DNA of 14,590 nt from a virus (taxonomy: Duplodnaviria > Heunggongvirae > Uroviricota > Caudoviricetes). Every line of letters starts with the position of its first letter. Position 1 is the stretch's first letter. The position numbers were made by a program, and so were the translations under genes. The notes beneath the pieces were generated by a model. It was not told the DNA's origin, searched no databases, and saw only the letters and a list, made by a program, of their open reading frames with translations. The stretch lies in the IMG/VR virus record IMGVR_UViG_2585427790_000008, one strand, 5' to 3'. Below are positions 1 through 13,618 of the stretch, one piece after another.

Positions 1-216
1 GTGAAAGTCATCATTGTTGAAGACGAATTCCTGGCACAACAGGAACTGAGCTGGCTAATTAAAGAGCACAGCCAGATGGAGATTGTCGGCACCTTTGACG
101 ACGGTCTGGACGTGTTGAAGTTTTTGCAGCATAACCGCGTCGACGCCATTTTTCTGGATATCAATATTCCGTCGCTGGATGGCGTGTTGCTGGCGCAAAA
201 CATCAGCCAGTTATAG
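1..216 (+). pseudogene. ypdB: 5' fragment (71 codons) of a LytTR-family two-component response regulator; receiver domain cut off mid-domain by the prophage insertion
   Basis: ORF translation MKVIIVEDEF...FLDINIPSLDG has the receiver-domain acidic pocket (EDE) and the phospho-acceptor Asp in FLDIN; it matches my recollection of the E. coli YpdB N-terminus up to NISQ and then hits a stop (QL*) where the native protein continues. Symbol is from memory, not from a search. Confidence 0.6.
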
Positions 217-224
217 CGCGGCGA

Positions 225-302
225 TTTTTTTGATACCGATTTGCATTTCATTTGATACCGCTGAAAAACGCCGATACGCAACTTATTTGATACTAAATCG
301 GC
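225..302. repeat. Three direct copies of TTTGATAC(C/T) (228-237, 251-260, 286-294) plus a 7-bp inverted repeat CGCCGAT/ATCGGCG (270-276 / 296-302); candidate transposase-binding end sites
   Basis: Repeats read directly from the sequence, sitting between the host junction and the mom stop. This is the position of the attR R1-R3 sites in Mu; the sequences are not identical to the Mu consensus. Confidence 0.3.
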
Positions 303-339
303 GCTTTTCTTTTGAGTTTTAGAATGAGTTTTTAAGCGT

Positions 340-1077
340 TCATTCACTCTCTTTCAAACCAGTTTTAACTGTTTGTGGTTTTGGGTAAGGCTGGACTTTG
401 AATAGCTTTGTGTTAAGGCGTTTTCTGGCTCTCTTGTCCAGAAACCGGATGTAACGAAACTGACGGAATTTATGAACACTGGCTCTGTCGATATTAGCCC
501 GCAGATGTTCACCTCGCTGTCCTCCTCGTTTGATTGCATTCTTGCAAATCTCGTGATACCACTCGCCATCAAGTTCATAGAATGTTGTTTCATGACTGCC
601 TACATAATCAAAATTGCTTGCCTGGTACACGACACCAAGACAGCCACAACGCTCATCTGCAAACGACTGAACCCACTGCACCTGCGGATAAAGTTGTCTG
701 ATTAGTTTGAGCGCGTAACTGATTGCCCTTGATTCGGAGTTTCTCGGCATACAGTCATGCAGCCATAACCGGTTAAGCTCCATATATTCGCGGTTCTGCG
801 TGCCAGTTACGACGCGTGCACCATTGTTTGGATTAAGGGCATAACCCCATTGCATTACGCCAACCAGCTCCCGTTCTGAAAATATGCCCAGATGAAGGTA
901 GGAATTATTTACGAAACGATGGCTGTAATGTTTATTGACGACGACCAGCCGGGCCAGCCAGCAACTTATTGTCTCAACCCGTAACTCACGGGAGCCATAA
1001 CCGACGATATTGTCGTTATAGTGAATAAGTTCAGGCGTGCTGATGATACGGGATGTAACTTGCTTTCTGTTCCCCAC
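340..1077 (-). CDS. mom: Mom-like DNA-modification protein (start uncertain; GTG at 1075-1077 proposed, ORF is open up to 1272)
   Basis: Last gene before the prophage end, same strand as com and overlapping its 3' end, as in Mu. I do not recall the Mom sequence, so the call is by synteny only. Confidence 0.5.
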
Positions 1078-1231
1078 GACAGGATTTCCTTGTGTATGTG
1101 GGGTGCTCTGTGGCGCTCTGAGATGTGATTTGATTGAGGGTTTTACAGCGCGGACATTTAACTTCCAGATAACTGAAGCTGGCTCGTGCCAGTAGCTTGT
1201 TACAATGTCGGCACCGTATGTTTCGATACAT
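1031..1231 (-). CDS. com: Com-like zinc-finger translational activator of mom
   Basis: [44 protein letters not shown] has the CxxC...CxxC pattern and matches Mu Com (IRCKNCNKLL...IRCPRCK...EHP). AGGAGG lies 10 nt upstream of the ATG at 1229-1231. The track ORF starts 15 codons earlier. Confidence 0.7.
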
Positions 1232-1276
1232 GGCCGCATAACCTCCTGCTTTGTTGTTGATATCTTTATCACTCAA

Positions 1277-1298
1277 TCGATCGACAAAAACGATCGAT
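1277..1298. promoter_or_regulatory. Cluster of two GATC (Dam) sites inside the short palindromes TCGATCGA / CGATCGAT, 48-65 bp upstream of com
   Basis: GATC at 1279-1282 and 1292-1295. Mu mom has a Dam/OxyR-controlled GATC cluster upstream of its promoter. Confidence 0.35.
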
Positions 1299-1487
1299 TT
1301 GATTTATTTAATTGATACAACAAATAACACGAAATGTCATTAGCGAAAATTTATGAGTTTGATCACTAATTTTAAACGGTGCTGTAACGCATAAGTGCTG
1401 AATGATTGTACATTTGAATACCGCAAAGCAAACAAATCAACTAATTTATAGAAGTCAATTGGTTAATTGCCAGCGTAAGAGGCTGCT

Positions 1488-1781
1488 ATGGACAATCATG
1501 TAACGACGAGAAATCGAAAAATGATTGAAAATGCGGAAATCTATAATGATTATTTTTCCGATTATTCAGATGCCTGCAAATACAGTTCGAGTGCGGGAGA
1601 GTTCATATGCTTCAACTTTTTTATTAAATCTTATGTTTTTCCTCCACAGCAAGAAGATGGAGGTGTGCCACCTCCTGAAATCACTTTGCACCGTATAGCC
1701 TCCGTCTCAATGATGGAGCAACAGGCTAATGAGCTGTATAGCATTCTGGGAACGATTCTACAAAAGCGTGAATCGGACTAA
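1488..1781 (+). CDS. Hypothetical protein (97 aa), AT-rich, no recognisable motif
   Basis: ORF with AAGAGG 6 nt upstream of the ATG; lies in a low-GC island between com and the esterase cluster. Confidence 0.3.
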   Translation: MDNHVTTRNRKMIENAEIYNDYFSDYSDACKYSSSAGEFICFNFFIKSYVFPPQQEDGGVPPPEITLHRIASVSMMEQQANELYSILGTILQKRESD

Positions 1782-1948
1782 TGATACCGGTTCATTTGCC
1801 TGCCCGGATGGGGAAGCAGGATTGACTGCTCCATAAGCAGCTATATTTCTGAATACGAAATACTATCCAGCGATTACATATGGCTGGATAGCGGCAAAGA
1901 TGTTTTCATTAGTGTCAAACCGGCAGAGGACACCACCGGTTTGTATTG

Positions 1949-2203
1949 TTACATCATGGTACTGTCAGTTCCGGGCTGAGCCGGGTCTGGTTGCTCTGGC
2001 TGCGCGTCGGTTTTCGGCTCATTATCAGCATCACTGGCCGCAACTGCTGGCCCAATAAGTTTTGCCAGCACTTCATCAACGTAAGTGTCGATTTGTGCCT
2101 CAAAATCCTTGCGGACCTGCGCTTTCAGCAACTTATTTACTTCACCGGAATACAGTGCCTGTTTTACCAGGTCTTCAGTGACGGTGCCTTTAATTTCTGG
2201 CAT
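1949..2203 (-). CDS. Hypothetical protein (84 aa), acidic Pro/Gln-rich C-terminus
   Basis: Strong RBS (AAGGAGGATATACATG). Preferred over the overlapping + strand ORF 1946..2332, which has no RBS. Confidence 0.45.
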   Translation of the reverse strand: MPEIKGTVTEDLVKQALYSGEVNKLLKAQVRKDFEAQIDTYVDEVLAKLIGPAVAASDADNEPKTDAQPEQPDPAQPGTDSTMM

Positions 2204-2238
2204 GTATATCCTCCTTATGCGGGAATAAAGCCCTGCAA

Positions 2239-2421
2239 TCAGGGCTGGGTCGGGTCTTTTGGGAGCGGAGTTACCTGCGCTGTTTTACTGAGTTTTTCAG
2301 CTGCTGCGTCCTCAATTTTGCGGCGAACATAATTTCTGATGGCCTTATAACCACCACTCACCAGATATAACGCACATACTGCCGTGCAGAAATACAATAA
2401 AATAAGCTGTAAAAATGTCAT
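2239..2421 (-). CDS. Small predicted single-pass membrane protein (~60 aa)
   Basis: Hydrophobic stretch FLQLILLYFCTAVCALYLV followed by a basic region. GGGAGGG lies upstream of the ATG at 2419-2421; the track ORF starts at an upstream TTG (2433). Confidence 0.4.
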   Translation of the reverse strand: MTFLQLILLYFCTAVCALYLVSGGYKAIRNYVRRKIEDAAAEKLSKTAQVTPLPKDPTQP

Positions 2422-2517
2422 TATCCCTCCCAATTATTGACATGGTGTTGACACCGGTAATATCTGTTAGGTAAAAAGGTGCACTGCATTTTTTGCTTTG
2501 GATATAACGATCTTTTT

Positions 2518-2558
2518 GCCGCCGGTTTCTTGTTTTCCCTTACCGGCGGCATTTTTTT
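2518..2558 (+). terminator. Stem-loop GCCGCCGGT-(15 nt)-ACCGGCGGC followed by ATTTTTTTAT on the + strand
   Basis: Perfect 9-bp stem with a downstream T7 run on the + strand, just 3' of the esterase stop on the opposite strand. The loop is long, so this is an uncertain terminator. Confidence 0.35.
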
Positions 2559-2565
2559 ATCCTGC

Positions 2566-4620
2566 TTACGCGTTATTCACTTCCACCACGATACTGTCAA
2601 TCAGTACCGGGTAAGTCGCATTTTTAGTGATATCGGTCACGCGCAACTTGTCTGCCGTAAACGTGCCGACCGGAGACTGCGACAGCATGAATGGTGTCCC
2701 GTCCTTACCATCAATGACCGGCGTCACCTCAATACTGTTGTTACCGGCAAAACGGAAGCCCAGCGTATGCCATTCGTTATTAAATGCGCCGAATGACCCC
2801 AGCTTCGTGTTCTGCGCCGTGTTTCCTTTGTGATACATCACGTTAAGGTCTGTGGCATCGCTCTGTACGTAGAACGATGCCAGCAGGTTATGACCGGCAT
2901 TTCCTTCCAGAGTAACCCCTTGCGGCAGGGCAGAAACCGGCCAGTACAGCGCCAGTGCGTACTGATTAGCCGTAAGCGCGCCATCGAGTTTAAAACGACA
3001 ACTGACAAGACCACCTTTACCCAGCAGGTCCGCACCATTACCAGCATCATGCTCAAGGTACCAGGGGGCTCTTCCTGTTTCCTTGGTCAGTTTCATTGCC
3101 TTACCCCCGCTGGCTCCGGCATCATCCACGATTTGAGCCTTGCCACCTCCGGCAGCCCAACCCTGTGGTGTCAACCGTCCTTCAGACTCAGATGCCCGGT
3201 AAGCAAATAGCGTACTCATCGTCGTGGTGTCTGCGGGTGGCGTGGACGGTTTTGATGGTGTATCAGGTGACGGCTTCTCATCCGGTGGTGTCACGGTCTG
3301 CCCGCGCATCAGTTCAGCCGTGCGCCCTGCATGGAGCATAATAGCTGAGGCCAGACGGTCTGAAATGACGCCCCTGCGTGCCCATGAGCTGAAATGGCTG
3401 TCACGCTGTGTCGAAACAAAACTGCCCTGGGTTCGGGATGCTGCACCGTAATACCCGACAGCCACAATATCCGGGTCTTCCGCCGGAGCATTCGTTGGCG
3501 TGCTCTGTCCATTCTCATCCGTCAGGAACGGTACAAAGAAAATTTTCTGTGCTTCCTTGCCTTTGTAGCCACCGTATACTGCCTCATATTTATCGGTGCC
3601 AGCGTTTTTCCAGTAATACGTGGTATCACCGCAAATCCACGGCACCGTGGTGGCATTTCCACTCACGCACTGCGCAGCAAGCGGAGCCAGGTCAGTTCTG
3701 AACTGCTGAACCATGGCCGTGAATAAACTATTATGCTGCTGGCTTCCTGAGGCAAGGTCTGCCTCTCCCTGCATCCAGACCACAGCCAGAAGTTTGTTTT
3801 TCGGGTTTTTCGCCAGCGCGACTTTGGTGCGGCTTACCAGGTCCTGATACAGAGGTTTACCGGCCCCCCAGCGTGAAGAATCAGCGGAAGCACCGCTGGC
3901 CTCACTGAATGAGCCGTCGGCTCCAGTGGTGAATGCTGACCCGCCACGACAACAGGGCACCAGAAGTATCCCGGCATTCTGTGGGATATAGGGAAGCAGT
4001 TTTTTGGCAATATGCAACCCCTGACCGACAGTCCCGTACTGGCCTTTTGCCAGATCAGCTTTCGGGTGGTTTATCCCGCTCATATCCTGAACATCATGCA
4101 GGCAGTGGTCTGCCGGAATGATGTCGTTGTATGTACACGACGTACCGTTGGGCGTTACCGTACTGCGGCGTGCCAGTTGCTTAATGCGTGGGTCCGGGCG
4201 GTCAAACGAATCCGGTAACGGCAGCCCCTCGCCGTAGGCCATGCCATTTGACTGACCCGCGAGAATGACAACAAAGTAATATTCCGGCTCTGAACTGCTG
4301 CCATTCGTGCTACCGGAAGGCCCGGCGTTATCCGGTGCATTCCAGTCGGAGGGCGTGAGCGTTCCGGCCACGTCAGATGTGATTGGAATGATGCCAGTCA
4401 CGCCTGAACTGGTGATTTCTGCACTGGGATTACCGGATACCGGCATTACCCATAATGGCTCTTTCGTGCTGAAGCGGATCACGCAGTCTGCGAAGGTGAT
4501 CCCCCCTTTATTACCCGAAGGGCGGAAAGGGCTTTCAATAAATGCCACCGTGCCACCGGCAACCTTGACTGAAAACTCTCCGGGCATGGCGGAGAGCATT
4601 TTCCACTTGGAGTCTGACAT
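2566..4620 (-). CDS. SGNH/SASA-family sialate O-acetylesterase-like protein (prophage NanS-p-like), 684 aa
   Basis: GQSN catalytic-serine motif (VVILAGQSNGMAYGEG) and downstream WMQGEAD motif typical of SASA esterases; Ser/Thr/Pro-rich linkers; long C-terminal beta-rich region. Confidence 0.7.
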   Translation of the reverse strand: MSDSKWKMLSAMPGEFSVKVAGGTVAFIESPFRPSGNKGGITFADCVIRFSTKEPLWVMPVSGNPSAEITSSGVTGIIPITSDVAGTLTPSDWNAPDNAGPSGSTNGSSSEPEYYFVVILAGQSNGMAYGEGLPLPDSFDRPDPRIKQLARRSTVTPNGTSCTYNDIIPADHCLHDVQDMSGINHPKADLAKGQYGTVGQGLHIAKKLLPYIPQNAGILLVPCCRGGSAFTTGADGSFSEASGASADSSRWGAGKPLYQDLVSRTKVALAKNPKNKLLAVVWMQGEADLASGSQQHNSLFTAMVQQFRTDLAPLAAQCVSGNATTVPWICGDTTYYWKNAGTDKYEAVYGGYKGKEAQKIFFVPFLTDENGQSTPTNAPAEDPDIVAVGYYGAASRTQGSFVSTQRDSHFSSWARRGVISDRLASAIMLHAGRTAELMRGQTVTPPDEKPSPDTPSKPSTPPADTTTMSTLFAYRASESEGRLTPQGWAAGGGKAQIVDDAGASGGKAMKLTKETGRAPWYLEHDAGNGADLLGKGGLVSCRFKLDGALTANQYALALYWPVSALPQGVTLEGNAGHNLLASFYVQSDATDLNVMYHKGNTAQNTKLGSFGAFNNEWHTLGFRFAGNNSIEVTPVIDGKDGTPFMLSQSPVGTFTADKLRVTDITKNATYPVLIDSIVVEVNNA

Positions 4621-4705
4621 CGTCTTTTCTGCCTGTTTCTGAATTAAACAGAGTCAGAATAGCGACCGCTGAAAAATATGTGTTTTGCGGAAATTCAAAA
4701 AAGCG

Positions 4706-5277
4706 TCACGGTACTTTTGGTGACGGAGCTGGTGAGGCAGGAAAATAACGATAAAGGGTGGAAAGGCCAATATCAAATATCAGTGCGATTTGTTTACGGG
4801 ACTCGCCATTAGCCAGCAAACGGGCGATTTGCTCCCGCTCTTTCTCTGTCAGTTTCTGAGGTCTGCCGCCATGACGCCCCTGAGCACGGGCAGCAGCAAG
4901 ACCCGCGCGTGTACGTTCAATAATGAGTTCCCGCTCCATTTCCGCCAGCGCGCCCATTATATGGAAAAGAAACGTCCCATGGGAGTGGATGTATCAATAT
5001 TGTCCGTAATGCTGCGGAAGTTAACGCCGCGTTGCCGGAGTTCTTCTGTTAAAAGGACAAGGTGCTGCATACTGCGTCCAAGGCGATCCAGTTTCCAGAC
5101 CAGCAGGGTATCCCCTGGCCGGAGTCGCTTTAATGCGCGTTTAAGTCCGGGACGCTCCCTTGTCTTACCGCTTATTCTGTCTTCGAAAAACAGCTCACAT
5201 CCTGCACATTCCAGCGCATTTCTTTGTAGCGCCGTATTCTGGTCATTTGTTGACACCCTGATATACCCAATCAGCAT
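4706..5277 (-). pseudogene. gin: Gin/Pin/Hin-family serine DNA invertase split by a -1 frameshift
   Basis: N-terminal ORF MLIGYIRVSTNDQ...PMGRFFSI* and C-terminal ORF MGALAEMERELIIERT...STLYRY match Mu Gin either side of ...MGRFFFHVMGALAEMERE. One T is missing from a T-run (+ strand A4 at 4955-4958). Confidence 0.8.
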
Positions 5278-5342
5278 ACGATTTCCTTATTATAAAAAGC
5301 CGGAATTGTCGCATGAGGAATAAAACAGAGTTAATCCTGGCT

Positions 5343-5368
5343 TTCCTGAAAACCTCGGTTTACGGGAA
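5343..5368. other. gix/hix-like 26-bp recombination site TTCCTGAAAACC-TC-GGTTTACGGGAA (invertase-proximal)
   Basis: Imperfect 12-bp dyad half-sites around a 2-bp core, resembling Mu gix and Salmonella hix; sits at the outer edge of the inverted repeat. Confidence 0.6.
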
Positions 5369-5481
5369 ACGGTAAACAGGGCGGCGAATGCCCTGCCATC
5401 GGACGGCACCGCCGTTGCCGCGAACAGGCTGGCAAATGCCCACACAATTAATGGTGTTCCCTTTGACGGGACGCAGGATAT
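5355..5481. repeat. Inverted-repeat copy (proximal), ~127 bp, imperfect, paired with 6547..6673
   Basis: The + strand 5355-5481 aligns by eye with the reverse complement of 6547-6673. Both encode [26 protein letters not shown]...[12 protein letters not shown]. Confidence 0.8.
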
Positions 5482-5707
5482 CACTATCTCATCAGGAACA
5501 GTAACCGCCATAAGACTGGGGTCGGTGACCGCACATATGCCCGGAACATGGGAAAGCTGGGATCTGAATCTGGGGGGCGGCAATGTTCTTACCGGAATTA
5601 AAGTACAGGATGTCGGTAAGAATACGGCAGATAACGTCGGCGGCGTGTATTACCGGCCGTTGCAGTATCTGTTAAATGGAGCATGGGTGACGGCTGCAAG
5701 TATATAA
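5356..5707 (+). CDS. Promoterless alternative tail-fibre C-terminal cassette (Sv'-like), silent in the present orientation
   Basis: Frame open from the crossover site to TAA at 5705-5707. Starts with the same 26 residues as the active fibre C-terminus, then diverges (...[21 protein letters not shown]...YRPLQYLLNGAWVTAASI*). Confidence 0.6.
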
Positions 5708-5715
5708 TGATATTC

Positions 5716-5740
5716 AGAAGGCCTTCCGGCCTTCTTTATT
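5716..5740 (+). terminator. Hairpin AGAAGGCC-TTCC-GGCCTTCT followed by TTTATT, between the convergent cassette and assembly-gene stops
   Basis: 8-bp perfect stem with a T-rich tail on the + strand, located between the stop at 5705-5707 and the minus-strand stop at 5739-5741. Confidence 0.4.
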
Positions 5741-6260
5741 ACTGTGGCTGCTCAGGCCATTTAATGGCGTTAAATTCAGCTTCTGTTTTAATGGCGGGGA
5801 GTTCCATTTTTTTTACCTGACTGATGTATGCCATCCATTGGGTAAGTGCTGCTCTGTCTTCATCGCTGATGGTGCCCAGTTGTAGCTCCGTTCTCCAGTC
5901 ATTAATTTTTTCATATGCCTGATTAAGATATGACTGGCGCATTGCTTCCAGTTTTCTTGCGTAGTTAACCGGAATACGGGAGATTATGCCATTATCAAAC
6001 TTCCAGTTTCCTGAAATATCCGTGCCTTCAGGGAGTTCATCGACCTCAACCACAGAAAACCCCGCAGGATACAGCGCCGAGGCGTCCTGTGATATTGAGC
6101 AGATAACGCCGCTGTCAGGTGTTATGCAAAGTTTATATTTTTTGGTGAATAATGGCAGGGATTCGTAGAAATCCTTACCATCTTCACTCTGGAAATACTG
6201 AACATTATTACCATATGGCATATTTTCAGGATAATAACGGGTTGTATTTTTTAGTTCCAT
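5739..6260 (-). CDS. Tail-fibre assembly chaperone (Mu U / Tfa-like), 173 aa
   Basis: C-terminal region ...ISGNWKFDNGII...LQLGTISDEDRAALTQWMAYISQVK...WPEQPQ resembles Mu U (...LGIISDENKQKLTEWMLYAQKV...FPEQPE); lies immediately downstream of the tail-fibre gene. Confidence 0.8.
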   Translation of the reverse strand: MELKNTTRYYPENMPYGNNVQYFQSEDGKDFYESLPLFTKKYKLCITPDSGVICSISQDASALYPAGFSVVEVDELPEGTDISGNWKFDNGIISRIPVNYARKLEAMRQSYLNQAYEKINDWRTELQLGTISDEDRAALTQWMAYISQVKKMELPAIKTEAEFNAIKWPEQPQ

Positions 6261-6311
6261 AAAATCCTCCTGGAAATAAATCTGTTTTAAAATATATTAT
6301 TTACTGACTAT

Positions 6312-7202
6312 TTATAACTGAGATACCGTAATCCATGTACCTCCGACTAATTTTTGCAGGGGTCTGAATGCTATAAAATCGTTTGAAGCATCAACTTTAC
6401 TGTCAATCTGCAGGCCTGCCATAACATTACCGTACGCAGAGTAATATGCCCCACCGTACATTACCTGCCTGTTCTCTGCTCCCAGCCTGATATCCTGGAT
6501 ATATCGGGAATCCGCATCCTGCTGTGTTATACCAGAAGTGATGTTTATGTCCTGCGTCCCGTCAAAGGGAACCCCATTAATATTTCTTGGGGTGGCGAGT
6601 CTATTCGCGGCAACGGCGGTGCCGTCCGATGGCAGAGCATTCGCCGCCCTGTTTACCGTTTCCCGTAAACCGACGTTATCGATAAAAGCCCCTTTATCCG
6701 GAATGTCTGCGCCGTTCTGCTCCCTGCGCAGGTAACGGTTATCACCTTCGCTTTTGCTGTAAACATCCAGATTATTACGGGCGGTTCCCTTATTCTCCAG
6801 GTCGGCGAGATTCTGATCCTTCGCCAGGGCATTAACGTCAGCGGGACCAAGACTGTTTTTTGTGGCAAGCGTCCCCAGACCAAGATAACCACGGGCCAGA
6901 CGCTGGGCCTCCGCACCGGCATCAGCAATTTCTTTCAGGTTATTTTTCCGGGAAAAGGCATTCGCAGCGATAATGGCTTTAATGGACAGCGTAAGCTGGT
7001 TTAACTGCGCCTTATCCGGCTGAATACTGGCTTCAGCCAGAATATTCAGCAGTTCGGCCTGGAGAATATTCAGCCAGTCCTGACCAATCCAGCTGATACC
7101 TTTTTGTCCGTCACCTTCGGTAAACCAGGTGGTGGTATTACTCTGCGCTGGTGCCAGCGCAGGCATATTCGCCACGCCGGAATTATTATCAACATGAAAC
7201 AT
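6312..7202 (-). CDS. Tail-fibre protein (Mu S-like), 296 aa, with its C-terminal third inside the invertible segment
   Basis: N-terminus [27 protein letters not shown] is typical of Mu/P2-type fibres; start overlaps the upstream stop (TAATG coupling). Confidence 0.8.
6547..6673. repeat. Inverted-repeat copy (distal), within the tail-fibre coding sequence
   Basis: Reverse complement matches 5355-5481 apart from a ~22-bp divergent patch and scattered mismatches. Confidence 0.8.
6661..6686. other. gix/hix-like 26-bp recombination site (distal); reverse complement reads TTATCGATAACG-TC-GGTTTACGGGAA
   Basis: Shares the right half-site and the TC core with the proximal site; the left half-site resembles hixR-type TTATCAAAAACC. 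Confidence 0.55.
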
Positions 7203-7762
7203 TAAATAGTCTCCTCTTCATGGCTGTTTGCATACACGTAAATAAACGTCTGCCATGCAGGCTTATAACGGTTCAGAATACATTCCAGCGCACCGCCTTC
7301 ATAAATACGCAGCGGCGTGAGAATATCATCCAGCACATTCATATTCCGGTAGCCGGTTTCACTGTTAATCGTGACAATACTGACCCACTGTGAATCCGGT
7401 GATGGCTGAATATCTATTTCATAACCAAACTCTGCCGCAAACCGGATATAAAATTCACGGTTAAGAGAGGGTTTCATCCGGTATTTATTCCCGGCATAAC
7501 GCTGACGCTCCTGAATGGTTGCGCCGGTCATATCACATTCCGGTAACCCCAGATAACGCTCCCAGTCTTCCAGCAGCAGACGAGATGAATCAGGAAAACG
7601 TTCTGCCAGCATCTGGTTACCGGTCCAGGAAACACGCTCCGTGGAATGACTGAGGCCCAGGCACAAAGCCGCAAGAACGGATGACGGCCGCTTATCCCAT
7701 GCCAGCCCGTCAGGCAGCAACTGCAACAGGGCACGCTGATGCGGGGTCAGGGTTACAGCCAT
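7202..7762 (-). CDS. Baseplate/tail protein, Mu gp48-like (DUF2313/YmfQ-like), 186 aa
   Basis: Size and position between the J-like baseplate gene and the tail fibre; start overlaps the upstream gene end. Confidence 0.65.
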
Positions 7763-8838
7763 GTGATTTCCCCCACGGTCAGCAACTCTGTATCTCCGGC
7801 CATCACGGACTTCAGCGGGCTGCGAACTTCAAAATCCTCCAGTCCTTTCACCCCTGCAACAGCCCGCCAGAATGATGAAGGCAATACAAGTCCACCCGGC
7901 CGCGATTCGTTATAAAGCAGGTCCGTTAATGCCTGTTTTACGGCAGCCTGATTTTCCGGCGTTTTGGGTACAATCCTGATCTCAAACGCCACCGGCTTAT
8001 TGGTCAGCTTAAACACGCTGATTGTCGGCCCAAGTGGCTGACCAACGGGCTGGCCCGTCGCCGGATCATCATGACTGCGGATATAATCCGCCACCCGCTT
8101 CACATCACCTTCTCCGGGGAAAATGTCAGGGTTATTATCCTGAACAAAAGTCACACCAACACTACCCGCCTCAGGCCATTCAGGCTTACACCATGCCCGC
8201 GTCACGCCCGGTACTTCCCGTGCCCAGCGTTCAAAATCATACTGTGTTCCCCCTGATGGCGGGTTCTGTACCCGGAATACCAGCCTGGACAGCAACTCCG
8301 GCACCGTTTCCACATCCGCACCACCGGTGAGTCCCGTGCCGGTGACCGTGGCTGTCTGGTTGATGCCTGCCTGTGGCGTGATAAAGGACAGGCGGGTTCC
8401 GGTCGGGGTATTTCCAGCGCGCCCCGCACTTTCCGCCTCCACATTAACATTCAGTGTTCCAGCTTTTCCGGTCGCAGAGCCGGTGATGCGGTACACAACA
8501 CCATCGCTTCGCTGAAGGAGTACGCCTTCCGTGATCCCTGCATCCGTGGTCAGCATCAGTTGTACCGGTCCGTCAGCGCGGGAAGCCGGTTTACGGATGA
8601 CACCCCAGAATGCGCAGTGTTTCAGGAGTTCGGCTTCATCAGCTTCTGTCGGAATTATCTGCCGGGAGATCCAGGCCAGATGTTCATGCTCCTGTGCTGA
8701 CAGACCCGCCAGTGCATACGCAATGGCATTCAGGGTGGTTTCATTCACGCCCGGCTGCGAACCGGGCAGGCGCTGGCTGATATCCTGTTGTGTCTGTGTG
8801 ATCAGTTGCGCCAGTGGTAAGGGCTGATAAGGCATCAT
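7753..8838 (-). CDS. Baseplate J-like protein (Mu gp47-like), 361 aa
   Basis: Size and order typical of a baseplate wedge gene; overlapping stop/start coupling with neighbours. Confidence 0.7.
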   Translation of the reverse strand: MMPYQPLPLAQLITQTQQDISQRLPGSQPGVNETTLNAIAYALAGLSAQEHEHLAWISRQIIPTEADEAELLKHCAFWGVIRKPASRADGPVQLMLTTDAGITEGVLLQRSDGVVYRITGSATGKAGTLNVNVEAESAGRAGNTPTGTRLSFITPQAGINQTATVTGTGLTGGADVETVPELLSRLVFRVQNPPSGGTQYDFERWAREVPGVTRAWCKPEWPEAGSVGVTFVQDNNPDIFPGEGDVKRVADYIRSHDDPATGQPVGQPLGPTISVFKLTNKPVAFEIRIVPKTPENQAAVKQALTDLLYNESRPGGLVLPSSFWRAVAGVKGLEDFEVRSPLKSVMAGDTELLTVGEITWL

Positions 8839-9272
8839 TCCCCCTTCATATCAGCATAAAAAATCATCGGATGTCTGCTTCCGTCCGGCAGGGTGATTTT
8901 CACGGAAAGCGAAAGGCGAGCATGCCCCACACGCATGGCATGACATACCACGGATGTGGCAGCACCGCTTTTATGCAGCCACGCCAGCGCTTCATCAGCA
9001 TAGGCCTGTGCACGGCTGACCACGGAGGACAGCGTCTTTTCACGGCTTAACAGCCAGAGACGGGAGCCAACGGGGCGCTCCCGGAAACTGTCTCCCCACC
9101 ATCCCCGACGGTCACGGGTGCCGTCAGGGATTTCATCGGAATCCAGCGCCCGCCTGTCCGTAAACAGTGAAATAATGACCGCAGTCAGCAGGCTGTTATC
9201 CGTCAGAAGATCTGCGCCGTTCAGTTGCAGGGAACCGCAACCCTGATCCCAGACGACAGCAATATCAGCCAT
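8835..9272 (-). CDS. Baseplate protein, Mu gp46 / P2 gpW-like (~145 aa)
   Basis: Start placed at the internal ATG (MADIAVVWDQ...), which overlaps the upstream gene end by 8 nt; the track ORF is extended 71 codons into the upstream gene. Confidence 0.65.
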   Translation of the reverse strand: MADIAVVWDQGCGSLQLNGADLLTDNSLLTAVIISLFTDRRALDSDEIPDGTRDRRGWWGDSFRERPVGSRLWLLSREKTLSSVVSRAQAYADEALAWLHKSGAATSVVCHAMRVGHARLSLSVKITLPDGSRHPMIFYADMKGE

Positions 9273-9879
9273 TCTCTGGTCCTCCCGTTTTGCTGCCTTC
9301 ACCGTTATCGTGATGCACATGACCTGAATAGGTGATCCCGGCAATAACCGCTTCGGACATCGTGAACGTCCCCTGTGATCTTCCGGTGCCGTCAATGGAC
9401 ACATTGCCTTTGACATGCAGGTTCTTATCCACTGTGACATTACCGGTAAAGTGAGCCTCCGGTGTATCCACCTGAACACCTTCATCGGCGTAAATCTCCA
9501 GCGTCTTACAGGTCACAATGATCCGGCCGTTCTTTGTCAGACGTATACGGTGCCCCTCATGGTGATACACGCCGGTATCTCCGGCGGTAAGTCCGGTCGG
9601 GCGACTGCGGCGGTCTTCCACCACAAGCACCACGGCCTGATCCCGTTGTCCGCCAGCACAGGCCAGAAAAACTTCCGCACCAGGCAGGGGGACGCTGATT
9701 TGCCCGTACTGCTGGGGGCGTTCAACGTCATCAAAGGTTTCACCATCCATACCGGTGATTTGCACATTCTGGATTTTCAGCGTGTCCGTTGTGCCGGTCA
9801 GTACACCACGCCCGAACAGCAGACGAACACCCCGCATCACGGGGGCCAGAAGGCGGCTGATGACTTCGTCATTCATCAT
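9265..9879 (-). CDS. Baseplate central spike protein (Mu gp45 / P2 gpV-like), 204 aa
   Basis: Size and order; Gly-rich beta-strand-like C-terminus; coupled to flanking genes. Confidence 0.7.
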   Translation of the reverse strand: MMNDEVISRLLAPVMRGVRLLFGRGVLTGTTDTLKIQNVQITGMDGETFDDVERPQQYGQISVPLPGAEVFLACAGGQRDQAVVLVVEDRRSRPTGLTAGDTGVYHHEGHRIRLTKNGRIIVTCKTLEIYADEGVQVDTPEAHFTGNVTVDKNLHVKGNVSIDGTGRSQGTFTMSEAVIAGITYSGHVHHDNGEGSKTGGPENG

Positions 9880-10993
9880 TGAATTTAATCCCCTGTTTTT
9901 TCATCTGTGCCCGCACGAAGGCGTCCACGTCACCCGCATTTCCGCTTCCGCTGTTTCCCGGCTCTGCCGGAACAATAAAGCCGTCACGGGGTGCCAGAAT
10001 CAGACGGGTGGTTTCGCCGTGATTTGCATCCAGCGAAAACTCCACCTGACAGACAAGAAGATCACGCTCTTCCACTCCGGTGCGGGGAGCCGTGACAGCC
10101 GTCAGCAGGTTGATATCCCACAACTGGCCGTTCTCCCGAAACCAGTGCCGCACGGTGGCTGTCAGGCGCACAGAGCGGGCAACCGCCCGGCGCATTTCCC
10201 GGACAGCCCTCTGGCGTGCACCGTCTGCATCAACAGCATGATCCGCCAGCACAATTTTCGGTCTGTAACGGTGGATGGCACTGTCTGTCACCGTACCAAC
10301 GGGTGCGGCCAGCGTTCCGGCTGTCAGTGCATCCCCGGCATGACCACCACCACGCCCGTGCCCCCGTACACGGTATTCACTGTGGCGCAGACGGTGATCC
10401 ACGTTGTGATCCAAATCCAGCAGATTTTCGCCCAGCGTCAGCGTGTCGCCACGCTGACTGCCGGCCTGAGTGAAAACCAGTTCACCGGCGGCATTACTGG
10501 TTACCAGGACGCCTCTGTGTCTCGCGGCCCGTGTCAGCGCATCTGCCACGGTTTCTGAGTTTTCCAGTGTGAAGGTGGAAAAGTGCCGGGCTGCCGTTGC
10601 ATCATTTACCTGCCAGCGCACCGTGACCCCGAACGGAGCACACAAATCTGAAGCAATGTGCTCCAGCGTGCGGTTCCTCCACTGGCTGCCCGGATGAATG
10701 GCTGAACAGTCCACCAGGTCACCGGTTTTATCCCGTCCGCTGAGCGTGATCTGAAAACGCGTGGCGCTGATGCGCTGCCGGACCTGATCCAGCCAGCCAG
10801 TGATCACAGGCTGACCGTCAATGCGCAATTCCAGAGACTGACCGGCACGGACGGATGACGGAAGGCGTACACCGGGCATCATTACCCCCAGTTCAAAGGA
10901 GCCCGCCAGATGTTCAAGAGAGCGACGAACACTCACCGTCAGCCAGCCGGAAAAAATCTCACCGCCCAGATACAGTTCAACCCTGCTGCTCAC
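9869..10993 (-). CDS. Baseplate hub/tail protein (Mu P/gp44, P2 gpD-like), 374 aa, GTG start
   Basis: Size and order; GTG at 10991-10993 preceded by GGAGGTGA; first gene of the retained tail module. Confidence 0.7.
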
Positions 10994-11046
10994 TAATCAC
11001 CTCCACTGAATGGCCTCCGGGAATGAACAGCGGATCAACAATACCG

Positions 11047-11454
11047 TTACGGCGCACAAAACGTTGCCAGCCGGTACTGTTCCCGGTGGCACGGTACAGG
11101 GTCACCAGTGCAGGCTCGGTGGTACGTACAGTCACTACTGTTGCACCGGGTAACGTTAATACAGCCCATCAGGCGAACCGCCTGAAACAGTGCGCGCAGC
11201 TCCTGGACTGTCTGAGTTTCCACAAACTGCGGCGGTTCCGGCAGTGCGCTTTGTTTATTCCAGTTCTCATACCAGGAGCGCAGGGAAGCAGCCACAGCAG
11301 CGTTATCGCCTTTATATTTTCCCTTACGGAAAGCCGATAATGTGCCGTCGGAAATTCCCGCCTCTCTGGCGATGGCATACTGCGTCAGTACGCCGCCATC
11401 AATAAGTTCATCAATGGTCTTGATTACATCGTTAATATCGGTCATATTATTCAC
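11047..11454 (-). pseudogene. Truncated Mu B-like transposition protein: N-terminal DNA-binding domain only, AAA+ ATPase domain deleted
   Basis: ...AIAREAGISDGTLSAFRKGKYKGDNAAVAASLRSWYENW...LPEPPQFVETQTV aligns with the MuB N-terminus (...LPEPPRFVETQTV); the Walker A box (GNPGVGKT) expected next is absent and the frame ends 35-40 codons later. Confidence 0.75.
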
Positions 11455-11527
11455 CTCGCTTGAGACAGCATTCTCCGAGACTGAAACCTCAAATAACCTG
11501 AGTCACCCCTCGGGTTATTTTTTTATT

Positions 11528-13618
11528 TCAGGCCAGCGGATCACTTTCTTTTAATTTCGCTTCGAGCAGTTGCAATCCCCGCTGGAAATTACGCTCGTAT
11601 TCTTCATCAGGTTCATCGTCAGCGACCGGTTGCTGAACGGTCACCGTATTACCCACAGGGCGGTATATGTTTTCCAGCCAGGGCTCCTGCGGCTTGTGCT
11701 CCAGCACGTTGACAACCTCATCCTCGGCATCACGGATTTTTTCCTCTGCGCGTTTACGCATGCCTTTAAGGCGCTGCTGCTGTTTGTAGTATTCCGCGCT
11801 GACAGGGAAGGCTTCGCGTTTATTGCCGTCCCATACCGCCTCGCAAATCACGCTGCCATCCGGGCGGCGCACGGTAATTCGTTCGGCATCATGAATGTCA
11901 TAGCTGATAAGTACCTTACGGCCATGCTCGTCACGCAGCTCGGGCGCGTAGTAAATATTATTCAGCCAGCGTATTTCACAGCGTCTTACAGGGCGCTCCA
12001 CCATCGGCCGGAACATATCCCGCAGTTCAACATCGGACAGCCATTCAATTTCCGTGTCCTCTTCCGCCAGGCGTTTTTTTCTGAACTCCGCCGGGCTGTA
12101 ATGTTTACCGTTCGGCTTCATGGGTAATTCATCGTGCGGCCGGTTGTTGTACCACTCAACACCGTCACGAATGGCATCAATCAGTTCAGACCAGGACGGT
12201 AAATCACGCATCGCTGACTGCTGCCGGGCGTTCAGCCGTTTGCCCTGTTGCAGGGCACTGAATGCCGAGCGTAAATCGCGGTTGGTTTTACGTAACGTCT
12301 CGCGATCTGCTCCTTTCCCGAAATAGGTGCGGTATTTACGGGCTATGCGCATCGGTAATGTGCGGTTAAGCCGTTCGATAATGCCCCGTCCCTGCGGATT
12401 ACCGGCAATCCCTGTCGGGTGATTAATCCCCAGTCGTGGCAGTATCCCCACAATCTCCTTATCCAGGACGTCGGCGGTTTCCCCGGAGCCATTATCCGAG
12501 TAATACAGAAACGGTTTGCCATGATGGCGAATACCGTGCTGTATGGCACCGGCTACGGCGAAAACATTTTCAGCCAGGTCAAGGCTCCAGCCCACCACAA
12601 AGCGCGTGCCACCGTCGATAACAAAGGTCACTTCCGGTGCGAATGGCCGCCCGTGAACCGGGTGCGCGCATTTCAGCTTCATGCCGTGACCGTCACCAAT
12701 CCAGACATAATTCACCGGCATTCTGGACCAGTCGCGGCGCGTGAATCCCTCAAGCTGACGGTATTCACTGCCAGTTACCCGGCCTTTTTGTTTCACCACT
12801 TCCGGCAGTTTCTTCATTGCGCGGCGAATGGTGTCATAAGAGGGCATGATATCGAGCATATAAGGCTCATCAGCGTGCCGGTGCTGCCATTCAGCAACAA
12901 AATCCTCGTAAGCCTCGGTCATTGGTCGGCCGTTTGACTGGCGATACTGCGCCAGAAATTCGGGCAGCCAGTTAATATCTTCGGCTTTTATTTCCTGGCG
13001 TTTACCCGGTGCCAGTAAAAGCAGGCGTTCAGCGGCGTTCTGTGCCTTGTTAAAGGCCGCAATCCAGCGTTTCAGCGTGATTTCACTCAACGCGCGGCTG
13101 TTTCCCTTTTTGGCGTTCGCCGTCTCAACCATTGCCACAATGCGCTCGTCCAGTTGTGATCGTGCCAGGCTGTTAACGAGGAACCGGATAGCCTTAGCGC
13201 AACTAAAGCCGGGTTGTTGCGCGATTTTCAGCACCTCGCTGACGATCGCTATTCGTGCCTCTGCCACTTTACGTTGGTTTTCAGTCAGGGCATTGAGGCG
13301 TTCGACCATCAGTTGGGGTGATCCGCGATATGCCTCCACCGCATCAACCACGGCAGGTGAGCGTCTGGCCTTTGTCACCACCGGAGCCGGTGATTCATCG
13401 GCTTTTTGCGTCATCAGTTGCAGGGCGTAGCGTTCACGTAATGCCTGCTGCGTCACTTCAGGTAAACAGTCGATGCTGTATTCAGTTGCTTTAGAGCCTG
13501 AGCGACGACGGGAACAACAGCTTTTCCCTTGTACGTAACGTTGTAATGCCTGGCGAATACCTTTTGTTGTAGCAGGCATTCCGGGCGCGCCAATCAGTTC
13601 TTTTGCAATGACATACAT
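11528..13618 (-). CDS. Mu A-like DDE transposase, 696 aa, apparently intact
   Basis: Length and position after ner; candidate DDE residues in WIGDGH, YYSDNGSGE and IIERLNR, spaced as in MuA. Confidence 0.8.
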   Translation of the reverse strand: MYVIAKELIGAPGMPATTKGIRQALQRYVQGKSCCSRRRSGSKATEYSIDCLPEVTQQALRERYALQLMTQKADESPAPVVTKARRSPAVVDAVEAYRGSPQLMVERLNALTENQRKVAEARIAIVSEVLKIAQQPGFSCAKAIRFLVNSLARSQLDERIVAMVETANAKKGNSRALSEITLKRWIAAFNKAQNAAERLLLLAPGKRQEIKAEDINWLPEFLAQYRQSNGRPMTEAYEDFVAEWQHRHADEPYMLDIMPSYDTIRRAMKKLPEVVKQKGRVTGSEYRQLEGFTRRDWSRMPVNYVWIGDGHGMKLKCAHPVHGRPFAPEVTFVIDGGTRFVVGWSLDLAENVFAVAGAIQHGIRHHGKPFLYYSDNGSGETADVLDKEIVGILPRLGINHPTGIAGNPQGRGIIERLNRTLPMRIARKYRTYFGKGADRETLRKTNRDLRSAFSALQQGKRLNARQQSAMRDLPSWSELIDAIRDGVEWYNNRPHDELPMKPNGKHYSPAEFRKKRLAEEDTEIEWLSDVELRDMFRPMVERPVRRCEIRWLNNIYYAPELRDEHGRKVLISYDIHDAERITVRRPDGSVICEAVWDGNKREAFPVSAEYYKQQQRLKGMRKRAEEKIRDAEDEVVNVLEHKPQEPWLENIYRPVGNTVTVQQPVADDEPDEEYERNFQRGLQLLEAKLKESDPLA

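Follow-up and report, generated by a model that had tools for sequence, protein, structure and literature searches.

A Mu-like prophage family of Escherichia coli carries a NanS-p-type esterase module with a different N-terminal domain in its gin-com/mom interval

In most accounts NanS-p sialate O-acetylesterases figure as lysogenic-conversion genes carried by Shiga-toxin (Stx) phages, through which pathogenic Escherichia coli is helped to feed on mucin. NanS, their chromosomal relative, consists of a single domain and belongs to the sialic-acid regulon of the host. Relatives of NanS-p are active on Neu5,9Ac2 and on mucin sialic acids (reviewed in PMC8065619). The nanS-p gene lies between stx and S, and genes for DUF826 and DUF1378 proteins lie between nanS-p and S (PMC10462455). 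In phage phi24B the homologue gp84 is a structural protein whose DUF1737 domain forms hexamers plugged into the capsid hexons, and fresh virions carry full-length gp84 that is later cleaved in its linkers (preprint 10.64898/2026.04.10.717836). Here we analyzed IMG/VR virus record IMGVR_UViG_2585427790_000008, a stretch of 14,590 nucleotides (nt) that we call the window, and describe the interval between the invertase gene gin and the com/mom genes of the Mu-like prophage that it contains. This interval is very probably a near-universal accessory block of one E. coli Mu-like prophage family, encoding the lambdoid-type trio of NanS-p esterase, DUF1378 and DUF826, with an esterase that is itself a mosaic.

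The window is a minus-strand Mu-like transposable prophage sitting in the E. coli gene ypdB. Positions 1-212 are the 5' part of ypdB, and the right end of the prophage meets this truncated response-regulator gene at ~212 (1-216). The element encodes a Mu transposase, a Ner-like regulator, baseplate genes, gin, com and mom. The Mu-type backbone, already recognized in a preliminary description made from the sequence alone, is confirmed by Pfam matches to Mu-transpos_C, HTH_Tnp_Mu_1, GpP/Gp44, Baseplate_J, Phage_Mu_Gp48, Resolvase, Zn_ribbon_Com and Mom, together with the Ner-like regulator, a tail-fibre assembly protein and Gin (Resolvase plus HTH_7). In Mu, 94 bp separate the gin stop from the com start and contain only Pmom, whereas in the window the gin stop (4706) and the com start (1231) are ~3.47 kb apart, in agreement with the ~3.4 kb of cargo that the preliminary description had set against the almost direct gin-com/mom succession of Mu. 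Reading from gin, the interval holds genes for a 684-amino-acid (aa) esterase, DUF1378 and DUF826, all on the minus strand, then a 97-aa open reading frame (ORF) on the plus strand and the com/mom control region (Table 1). The features listed in the preliminary description are all present at or near where it had placed them.

Table 1. Features of the gin-com interval and its flanks in window coordinates. Residue numbers (aa) refer to the esterase; dN/dS, ratio of nonsynonymous to synonymous substitution rates; pLDDT, predicted local distance difference test score.
Feature	Position	Strand	Evidence or remark
com/mom	340-1231 (com 1031-1231; mom 340-1077)	-	right flank; Pfam Zn_ribbon_Com, Mom; RefSeq annotation
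com/mom upstream control region	1232-1326	-	conserved across the family to 1326; GATC palindrome 1275-1299
Variable slot between DUF826 and com control region	1327-1916		unrelated DNA in FORC_069
Orphan 97-aa ORF	1488-1781	+	GC 0.40; AAGAGG upstream
DUF826 (PF05696), 84 aa, acidic	1949-2203	-	Pfam E = 6e-16; PHROG_311
DUF1378 (PF07125), 60 aa, single-pass membrane peptide with basic tail	2239-2421	-	Pfam E = 1e-31; PHROG_494
Tract common to lambdoid nanS-p/DUF1378 module (recombination mosaic)	2293-4287		DNA identity to lambdoid prophages
Intrinsic-terminator-like hairpin, 10-bp GC-rich stem plus seven T	2517-2559	+	antisense to the module; between esterase and DUF1378
NanS-p-type sialate O-acetylesterase, 684 aa, chimera	2566-4620	-	Pfam SASA and DUF6645; PDB 3pt5 and 6yp6; PHROG_143
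Lectin-like jelly-roll C-terminal domain (DUF6645), aa 469-684	2569-3216	-	6yp6 E = 7e-98; DUF6645 E = 7e-68
SGNH/SASA catalytic domain, aa 111-430	3331-4290	-	aligned to NanS 3pt5 residues 16-331; four SGNH blocks
Flexible linker, aa 83-110, rich in Ser/Gly/Pro/Thr	4291-4374	-	pLDDT <50 over 83-111; dN/dS 0.32
Esterase N-domain, aa 1-82, predicted all-beta	4375-4620	-	position of DUF1737 in lambdoid NanS-p; AlphaFold2 five strands, pLDDT 69
Spacer, gin stop to esterase start	4621-4705	-	85 bp; GC 0.39; weak ribosome-binding site
gin invertase	4706-5277	-	left flank of interval; frameshifted; ORFs 4957-5277 and 4706-4957 carry Resolvase and HTH_7 domains

The 684-aa protein matches SASA (E = 1.5e-13) and PHROG_143 (E = 2e-296), aligns with the solved NanS structure 3pt5 over aa 110-428 (E = 2e-117) and with the NanS-p C-terminal domain structure 6yp6 over aa 469-683. 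Its SGNH blocks are GQSN at residue 122, GGSAF at 226, WMQGE at 282 and RDSHFSS at 406. These matches bear out its earlier assignment, from GQSN and WMQGEAD motifs, as a NanS-p-like SGNH/SASA esterase. All four ORFs of the interval are conserved and under purifying selection as judged by dN/dS. Neither a missing SASA match nor a lack of conservation in the small ORFs, which the preliminary description had named as grounds for refuting it, was thus observed. The window protein has the catalytic and C-terminal domains of NanS-p but lacks the N-terminal DUF1737 and lies outside the lambdoid location between Q/stx and holin S; a search for DUF1737 in the 684-aa protein, suggested in the preliminary description, gave no Pfam match. 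No signal peptide and no N-terminal hydrophobic stretch were found in the protein.

Absent from the preliminary description is that the esterase is a chimera in which another N-terminal domain has replaced DUF1737. Pfam detects DUF1737 in 3/3 lambdoid esterases (E = 1e-13 to 1e-15) and in 0/4 Mu-like esterases; the N-domain of the window protein has no Pfam match. Compared with the variant in strain CI5, dN/dS is 0.044 for the N-domain, 0.086 for the catalytic domain and 0.12 for the C-terminal domain, making the N-domain the most constrained part of the protein. A HMMER search with residues 1-115 against 1.84 billion representative proteins returned four matches, all of them fragments that contain the N-domain and the start of the esterase. 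Two are fragments of the window-type protein and two are distant (32% and 26% identity), and in both distant fragments the N-domain is followed by a Pro/Ser/Thr linker and then by PEYYFVIPVAGQSN. The gene for one of the distant fragments belongs to a different Mu-like prophage, where it comes after the baseplate and fibre genes, the invertible segment and gin, with two small ORFs between. A scan of viral contigs yielded a third N-domain lineage (contig L035), a Mu-like prophage that is without gin, DUF1378 and DUF826 and in which the gene for a 784-aa esterase comes directly behind those for tail fibre and assembly. Compared with the window protein, this esterase is 39% identical in its N-domain, 69% in its catalytic domain and 35% in its C-terminal domain. 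Diverged N-domain esterases are thus found beside tail-fibre or gin genes in two distant Mu-like prophages.

Among deposited phage records the N-domain occurs only in two Stx phage records, in both within a region annotated as an inserted Mu-like phage. A word-indexed search for relatives returned only near-identical fragments, two scans of genome contigs for relatives returned nothing, and a metagenome scan returned only E. coli-type copies. These counts do not prove that the N-domain is rare, since in clusters formed at 50% identity a DUF1737-type sequence probably stands as representative for N-domain proteins of full length. Within the searches made, the N-domain was found only in Mu-like prophages, including two distant lineages, and in every context examined the type of N-terminal domain tracks the type of phage (13/13 Mu-like, 3/3 lambdoid).

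The remainder of the esterase is shared with lambdoid prophages. In 3/3 lambdoid prophages inspected (EDL933, FEA3 and 2017.17.03CC) the gene order is antiterminator Q, SASA esterase of 645-650 aa, DUF1378, DUF826, holin and lysozyme. The preliminary description had placed esterases of this type downstream of tail fibres in lambdoid prophages; all three instead lie between Q and the holin/lysis cassette, as also reported in PMC10462455. Since the same order follows nanS-p in lambdoid prophages, we regard esterase, DUF1378 and DUF826 of the window as one shared module. DNA identity to 2017.17.03CC is 91.8% over 2293-4287, to FEA3 91.6% over 2542-4290 and to EDL933 76% over 2288-4290. One boundary of the shared tract falls at window position 4287/4290 in every comparison, at the codons for EPEYYF (residue 111) in the first strand of the catalytic domain, and the other (2288/2293) falls inside DUF1378. 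Relative to the two closest lambdoid proteins, amino acid identity is 92-94% in the catalytic domain and 92-94% in the C-terminal domain; esterase residues 1-105 have no lambdoid counterpart in the comparison. The esterase is a mosaic: recombination with lambdoid alleles has involved its catalytic SGNH domain and its lectin-like C-terminal domain, and most of DUF1378 as well. In P2-like E. coli phages (locus L007, positions 1-1464; record PV468777) the lysis genes are closely followed by a gene for a DUF1737-type esterase, whose C-terminal domain shows 76% DNA identity to the window gene. The esterase cassette has therefore reached a third type of phage.

The com/mom family of the window is present in 233 of 5,426 complete E. 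coli genomes, and N-domain DNA is present in ~233 (28-32 with the window type and 205 with a diverged O157 type), a match between totals and not genome by genome. We inspected eight related E. coli copies. Together with the window they represent seven insertion sites (ypdB, beside rhsC/ybfB, xdhA, elfC, flgL, a type I restriction gene and beside frvB), as expected for transposition, and at all seven the block is bordered on one side by com/mom and on the other by gin, or by the fibre genes in copies that lack gin. The agreement of the totals and the constancy of the block at the inspected sites indicate that the esterase is a stable feature of the family and not a sporadic insertion. The family is also common in O157:H7 genomes. 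The Mu-like prophage of O157 Sakai is called Sp18, and the O157 copies counted here may correspond to it.

Besides the fact that these counts agree only as totals, four observations weigh against reading the interval as a near-universal NanS-p block of the lambdoid type. The two distant Mu-like lineages have the esterase but neither DUF1378 nor DUF826, so the esterase does not need them. Block IV of the window esterase is RDSH, as compared to RSSH or RASH in NanS-p (PMC10462455), with the His retained. The esterase gene has a weak ribosome-binding site and no promoter of its own that a promoter scan could recognize. Finally, the region where Mu encodes its late activator is missing from the window prophage, in which the middle genes and most late genes are deleted, so phage-driven expression of this particular copy is doubtful and has probably been lost.

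We propose the following for substrate, timing and release. The esterase would O-deacetylate sialic acids such as Neu5,9Ac2 and those of mucin, as assayed for lambdoid NanS-p; for the window protein this activity is inferred from its catalytic-domain identity to the two lambdoid NanS-p-type alleles. The lectin-like C-terminal domain may help in substrate binding. Because the gene is on the late-gene strand and has no evident promoter of its own, the enzyme is probably expressed in lytic growth, and because it has no signal peptide its release would have to await lysis by the phage, as free enzyme or bound to the virion.

The preliminary description had viewed the esterase and its partners as a moron at an insertion hotspot. 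On such a reading the block would serve the lysogen, by growth on O-acetylated sialic acids, and not the phage. NanS-p enzymes do make Neu5,9Ac2 usable for growth and also attack mucin glycans (PMC8065619), the interval is missing from Mu, the slot next to the module is variable, and the ORFs are intact in a prophage that has otherwise decayed. Against this, the block is near-universal in the family and its esterase also occurs in distant Mu-like lineages. The late-strand gene, with neither an evident promoter nor a signal peptide, would leave a living lysogen unable to export the enzyme, and the expression of lambdoid nanS-p goes up on induction (PMC10462455). The window copy is moreover identical to those in fuller prophages, so its intactness may reflect recent decay of the prophage and not selection. 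We consider a benefit to the lysogen unlikely as the purpose of the block. The hotspot idea finds support in the variability of the neighboring slot (1327-1916), where accessory genes do change; the sporadic moron does not hold for the esterase module, which is stable across the family.

The exchange of N-terminal domains suggests another possibility, which we hold tentatively: the N-domain may tether the esterase to the Mu-like virion, at the capsid or the tail, with each type of phage supplying its own anchor for a shared cassette. The DUF1737 of a NanS-p homologue decorates a capsid (preprint 10.64898/2026.04.10.717836), and the N-domain replaces DUF1737 at exactly this position, with a similar disordered linker after it. 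The catalytic part crosses between phage types at 92% DNA identity while the N-domains stay with their type (13/13 and 3/3), the N-domain is the part under strongest constraint (dN/dS 0.04), and the gene is on the late strand beside the tail-fibre genes. However, the P2-like phages with a DUF1737-type esterase are myoviruses, implying that DUF1737 is not tied to one type of capsid, and an additional sugar-binding or oligomerization domain would yield the same genomic pattern.

A third function would be as an adsorption aid, with the esterase deacetylating bacterial surface sugars (O-antigen, capsule or K1 polysialic acid) in the manner of deacetylating phage tail proteins. The gene adjoins the tail fibre and the invertible host-range segment, its catalytic core has a weak match (E = 1e-6) to PHROG_25867, annotated 'tail protein', and the possibility has been raised for NanS-p (PMC8065619). 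The demonstrated substrates of the family are nevertheless sialic acid and mucin only, the catalytic and lectin domains, at ~93% identity to lambdoid alleles, give no sign of a new specificity, and no similarity to baseplate-binding or fibre-binding domains was found. Taken together, these points make a role in adsorption quite improbable.

The two small proteins of the module had been described as uncharacterized and without a recognizable motif. They instead belong to Pfam families DUF1378 and DUF826, which come after nanS-p in the lambdoid prophages inspected. The DUF1378 match scores 109 bits against a cut-off of 25 and spans profile positions 1-58 of 59, and the DUF826 match scores 58.7 bits against a cut-off of 25 and spans positions 1-58 of 75. 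Their predicted properties are as anticipated: the ~60-aa peptide has one hydrophobic stretch (residues 3-21), as expected of a single-pass membrane peptide, and an isoelectric point (pI) of 9.3, and the 84-aa protein is acidic (pI 4.2), its gene having a strong ribosome-binding site, AAGGAGG, five bases ahead of the ATG. The dN/dS is 0.14-0.32 for DUF1378 and, within Mu-like lineages, 0.09-0.22 for DUF826. No PDB relatives were found for either protein, and a PADLOC search for anti-phage defence proteins was negative for both, with a single insignificant match for DUF826 (PbeC, E = 0.008). A homologue search with DUF826 returned only Mu-like subtypes, and tblastn with DUF826 and DUF1378 against phage records returned only Mu-like inserts.

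DUF1378 and DUF826 might be hitch-hikers, that is, genes of the lambdoid lysis region that reached the Mu-like phage through their linkage to the esterase. In the 3/3 lambdoid contexts they directly precede the holin, the distant Mu-like lineages possess the esterase without them, and one of the recombination boundaries lies inside DUF1378. Both are nonetheless under purifying selection in two Mu-like sublineages (dS 0.5-0.8, dN/dS 0.22-0.32) in which there is no adjacent holin, and the Mu-like DUF826 proteins make up subtypes of their own. On this evidence, carriage by linkage alone is a possible account of the two genes, and a doubtful one.

Counts in promoter and terminator scans were not above those of shuffled sequence, the promoter scan found no consensus promoter inside the spacer between gin and the esterase gene, and there were no Rfam matches in window positions 1-5400. 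The hairpin between the esterase and DUF1378 genes has a predicted folding energy of -23.9 kcal/mol (z = -4.4), a stability reached by 0/200 shuffled sequences. Part of the tract shared with lambdoid prophages, it reads as a terminator solely on the strand antisense to the module and could terminate transcription that arrives from the opposite-strand ORF. An exact TTAT-N6-ATAA dyad, TTATGCGGGAATAA, closely precedes the ribosome-binding site of DUF826, at 2215-2228, and resembles TTATGCCCCAATAA of the Mu mom promoter region. Such a dyad would be a C-protein binding site; the window contains 10 of them as compared to 4.7 expected, an excess judged not significant.

Between the module and com/mom lies a slot whose contents vary. 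FORC_069 aligns with the window up to 1326 and again from 1917, and the DNA between is unrelated. The slot contains the 97/86-aa ORF in the window, CI5 and M3, a 175-aa zinc-ribbon ORF in M18, a 154-aa ORF in O157, and a 66-aa minus-strand ORF plus a fragment in FORC_069 and HCP4S3_I4. None of the slot ORFs has a convincing Pfam match or a PADLOC match. The window copy of the slot is occupied by the 97-aa gene, which is AT-rich and on the opposite strand as had been noted earlier. RefSeq annotates it as an 86-aa ORF starting at 1521. Its homologues occur only in E. coli and Shigella (dN/dS 0.36), there was no Pfam, PHROG, NCBIfam or PADLOC match, and AlphaFold2 modelled it with too little confidence (pLDDT 52) to allow a fold search.

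The GC content is 0.34-0.35 over positions 1232-1487. The preliminary description had taken 1272-1490 as a low-GC leader; the low GC content is real, and the single unit is not, for the DNA up to ~1326 belongs to the conserved com/mom control region and the variable slot begins after it. The motif ATCGATCG-N-GATCGAT (1275-1299) has its aligned counterpart in the GATC cluster that precedes Mu com, and the promoter scan called this GATC palindrome a terminator-like hairpin. In the window the distance from the GATC cluster to the downstream com is only ~40 nt, far less than in Mu, and the layout of the mom promoter therefore differs from that of Mu. Two in-frame ATGs, at 1239 and 1231, could start com, and RefSeq annotates 1231. 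The start at 1231 is favored because AGGAGG is found 10 nt before it and only 2 nt before 1239. The mom gene of the window has 72% DNA identity to Mu mom. In L035 (13631-14840), com is followed by a gene for a C5 cytosine DNA methyltransferase in place of mom, and a pairing of Com with a cytosine methylase is also found in one E. coli genome, SW070917.

The copy of the prophage in the window is defective. An N-terminal fragment of MuB is joined near 11123 to the 3' end of a DNA-circularization gene (~11047-11454), and this internal deletion takes out the middle region together with the genes for lysis and head and most of those for the tail. Strain DLI.5a is 99.8% identical to the window over 1-5478 and has the same ypdB insertion with a different deletion (window 7556-12773 unmatched); its gin is marked as frameshifted in RefSeq. 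In JE86-ST05 and FORC_069 gin is intact, and it is absent from CI5, M3 and M18. An invertible G-like segment at 5339-6690, with inverted repeats at 5348-5433 and 6595-6680, contains the tail-fibre tip and assembly genes, and its orientation in the window is opposite to that in DLI.5a, JE86-ST05, CI5 and FORC_069. This difference between near-identical copies means that inversion has happened, despite the gin frameshift in the window.

The genes of this module are already present and annotated in many public genomes. New here, on the present sequence comparisons, would be a NanS-p module with an alternative N-terminal domain that is resident in Mu-like prophages; no paper linking Mu-like phages with a NanS-p-type esterase was found among those searched. 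The esterase cassette and its two small partners are near-universal in a type of phage that is unrelated to the lambdoid phages and common in O157:H7 and other Shiga toxin-producing E. coli, and only the N-terminal domain is exchanged. The capsid-anchor role of the N-terminal position in phi24B (preprint 10.64898/2026.04.10.717836) raises the question whether the NanS-p family is a modular virion-display system. It is possible, though doubtful at present, that NanS-p proteins are virion-displayed enzymes built from an exchangeable catalytic/lectin cassette and an anchor specific to the phage type. The Mu-lineage N-domain would then be a novel virion-binding module that places a mucin-sialic-acid esterase on a Mu-like myovirus particle, and interaction with mucus, not feeding of the lysogen, would be the conserved purpose of the NanS-p family across unrelated phage architectures. 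Telling the stable three-gene module apart from the truly variable slot beside com/mom also points to the slot as the better place to look for new accessory genes.

Compared with known systems, the window protein is closest to the NanS-p of Stx and lambdoid phages (933W L0105/z1466 and phi24B vb_24B_21/gp84), to which its catalytic and C-terminal domains are 72-94% identical in amino acid sequence; like them it has no signal peptide and is followed by DUF1378 and then DUF826. It differs in that an unrelated ~82-aa beta domain and linker stand in place of DUF1737, and in that the gene resides in a Mu-like transposable prophage between gin and com/mom, not between Q/stx and the holin. The chromosomal NanS (YjhS) of E. 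coli aligns over the whole length of the catalytic domain and has the same SGNH block variants, whereas the window protein is phage-borne and has additional N- and C-terminal domains. The beta region of Mu agrees with the window in the order and orientation of gin, com and mom, in the GATC palindrome upstream of com and in the invertible G segment beside gin. It differs in its gin-com distance (94 bp as compared to ~3.5 kb in the Mu-like family of the window) and in the spacing from the GATC cluster to com, which is much shorter in the window. With phi24B gp84 the window protein shares a small N-terminal domain and a flexible linker ahead of an esterase and lectin cassette. The DUF1737 decoration domain of gp84 consists of one helix and three strands (preprint 10.64898/2026.04.10.717836), whereas the N-domain of the window is predicted to be all-beta with five strands.

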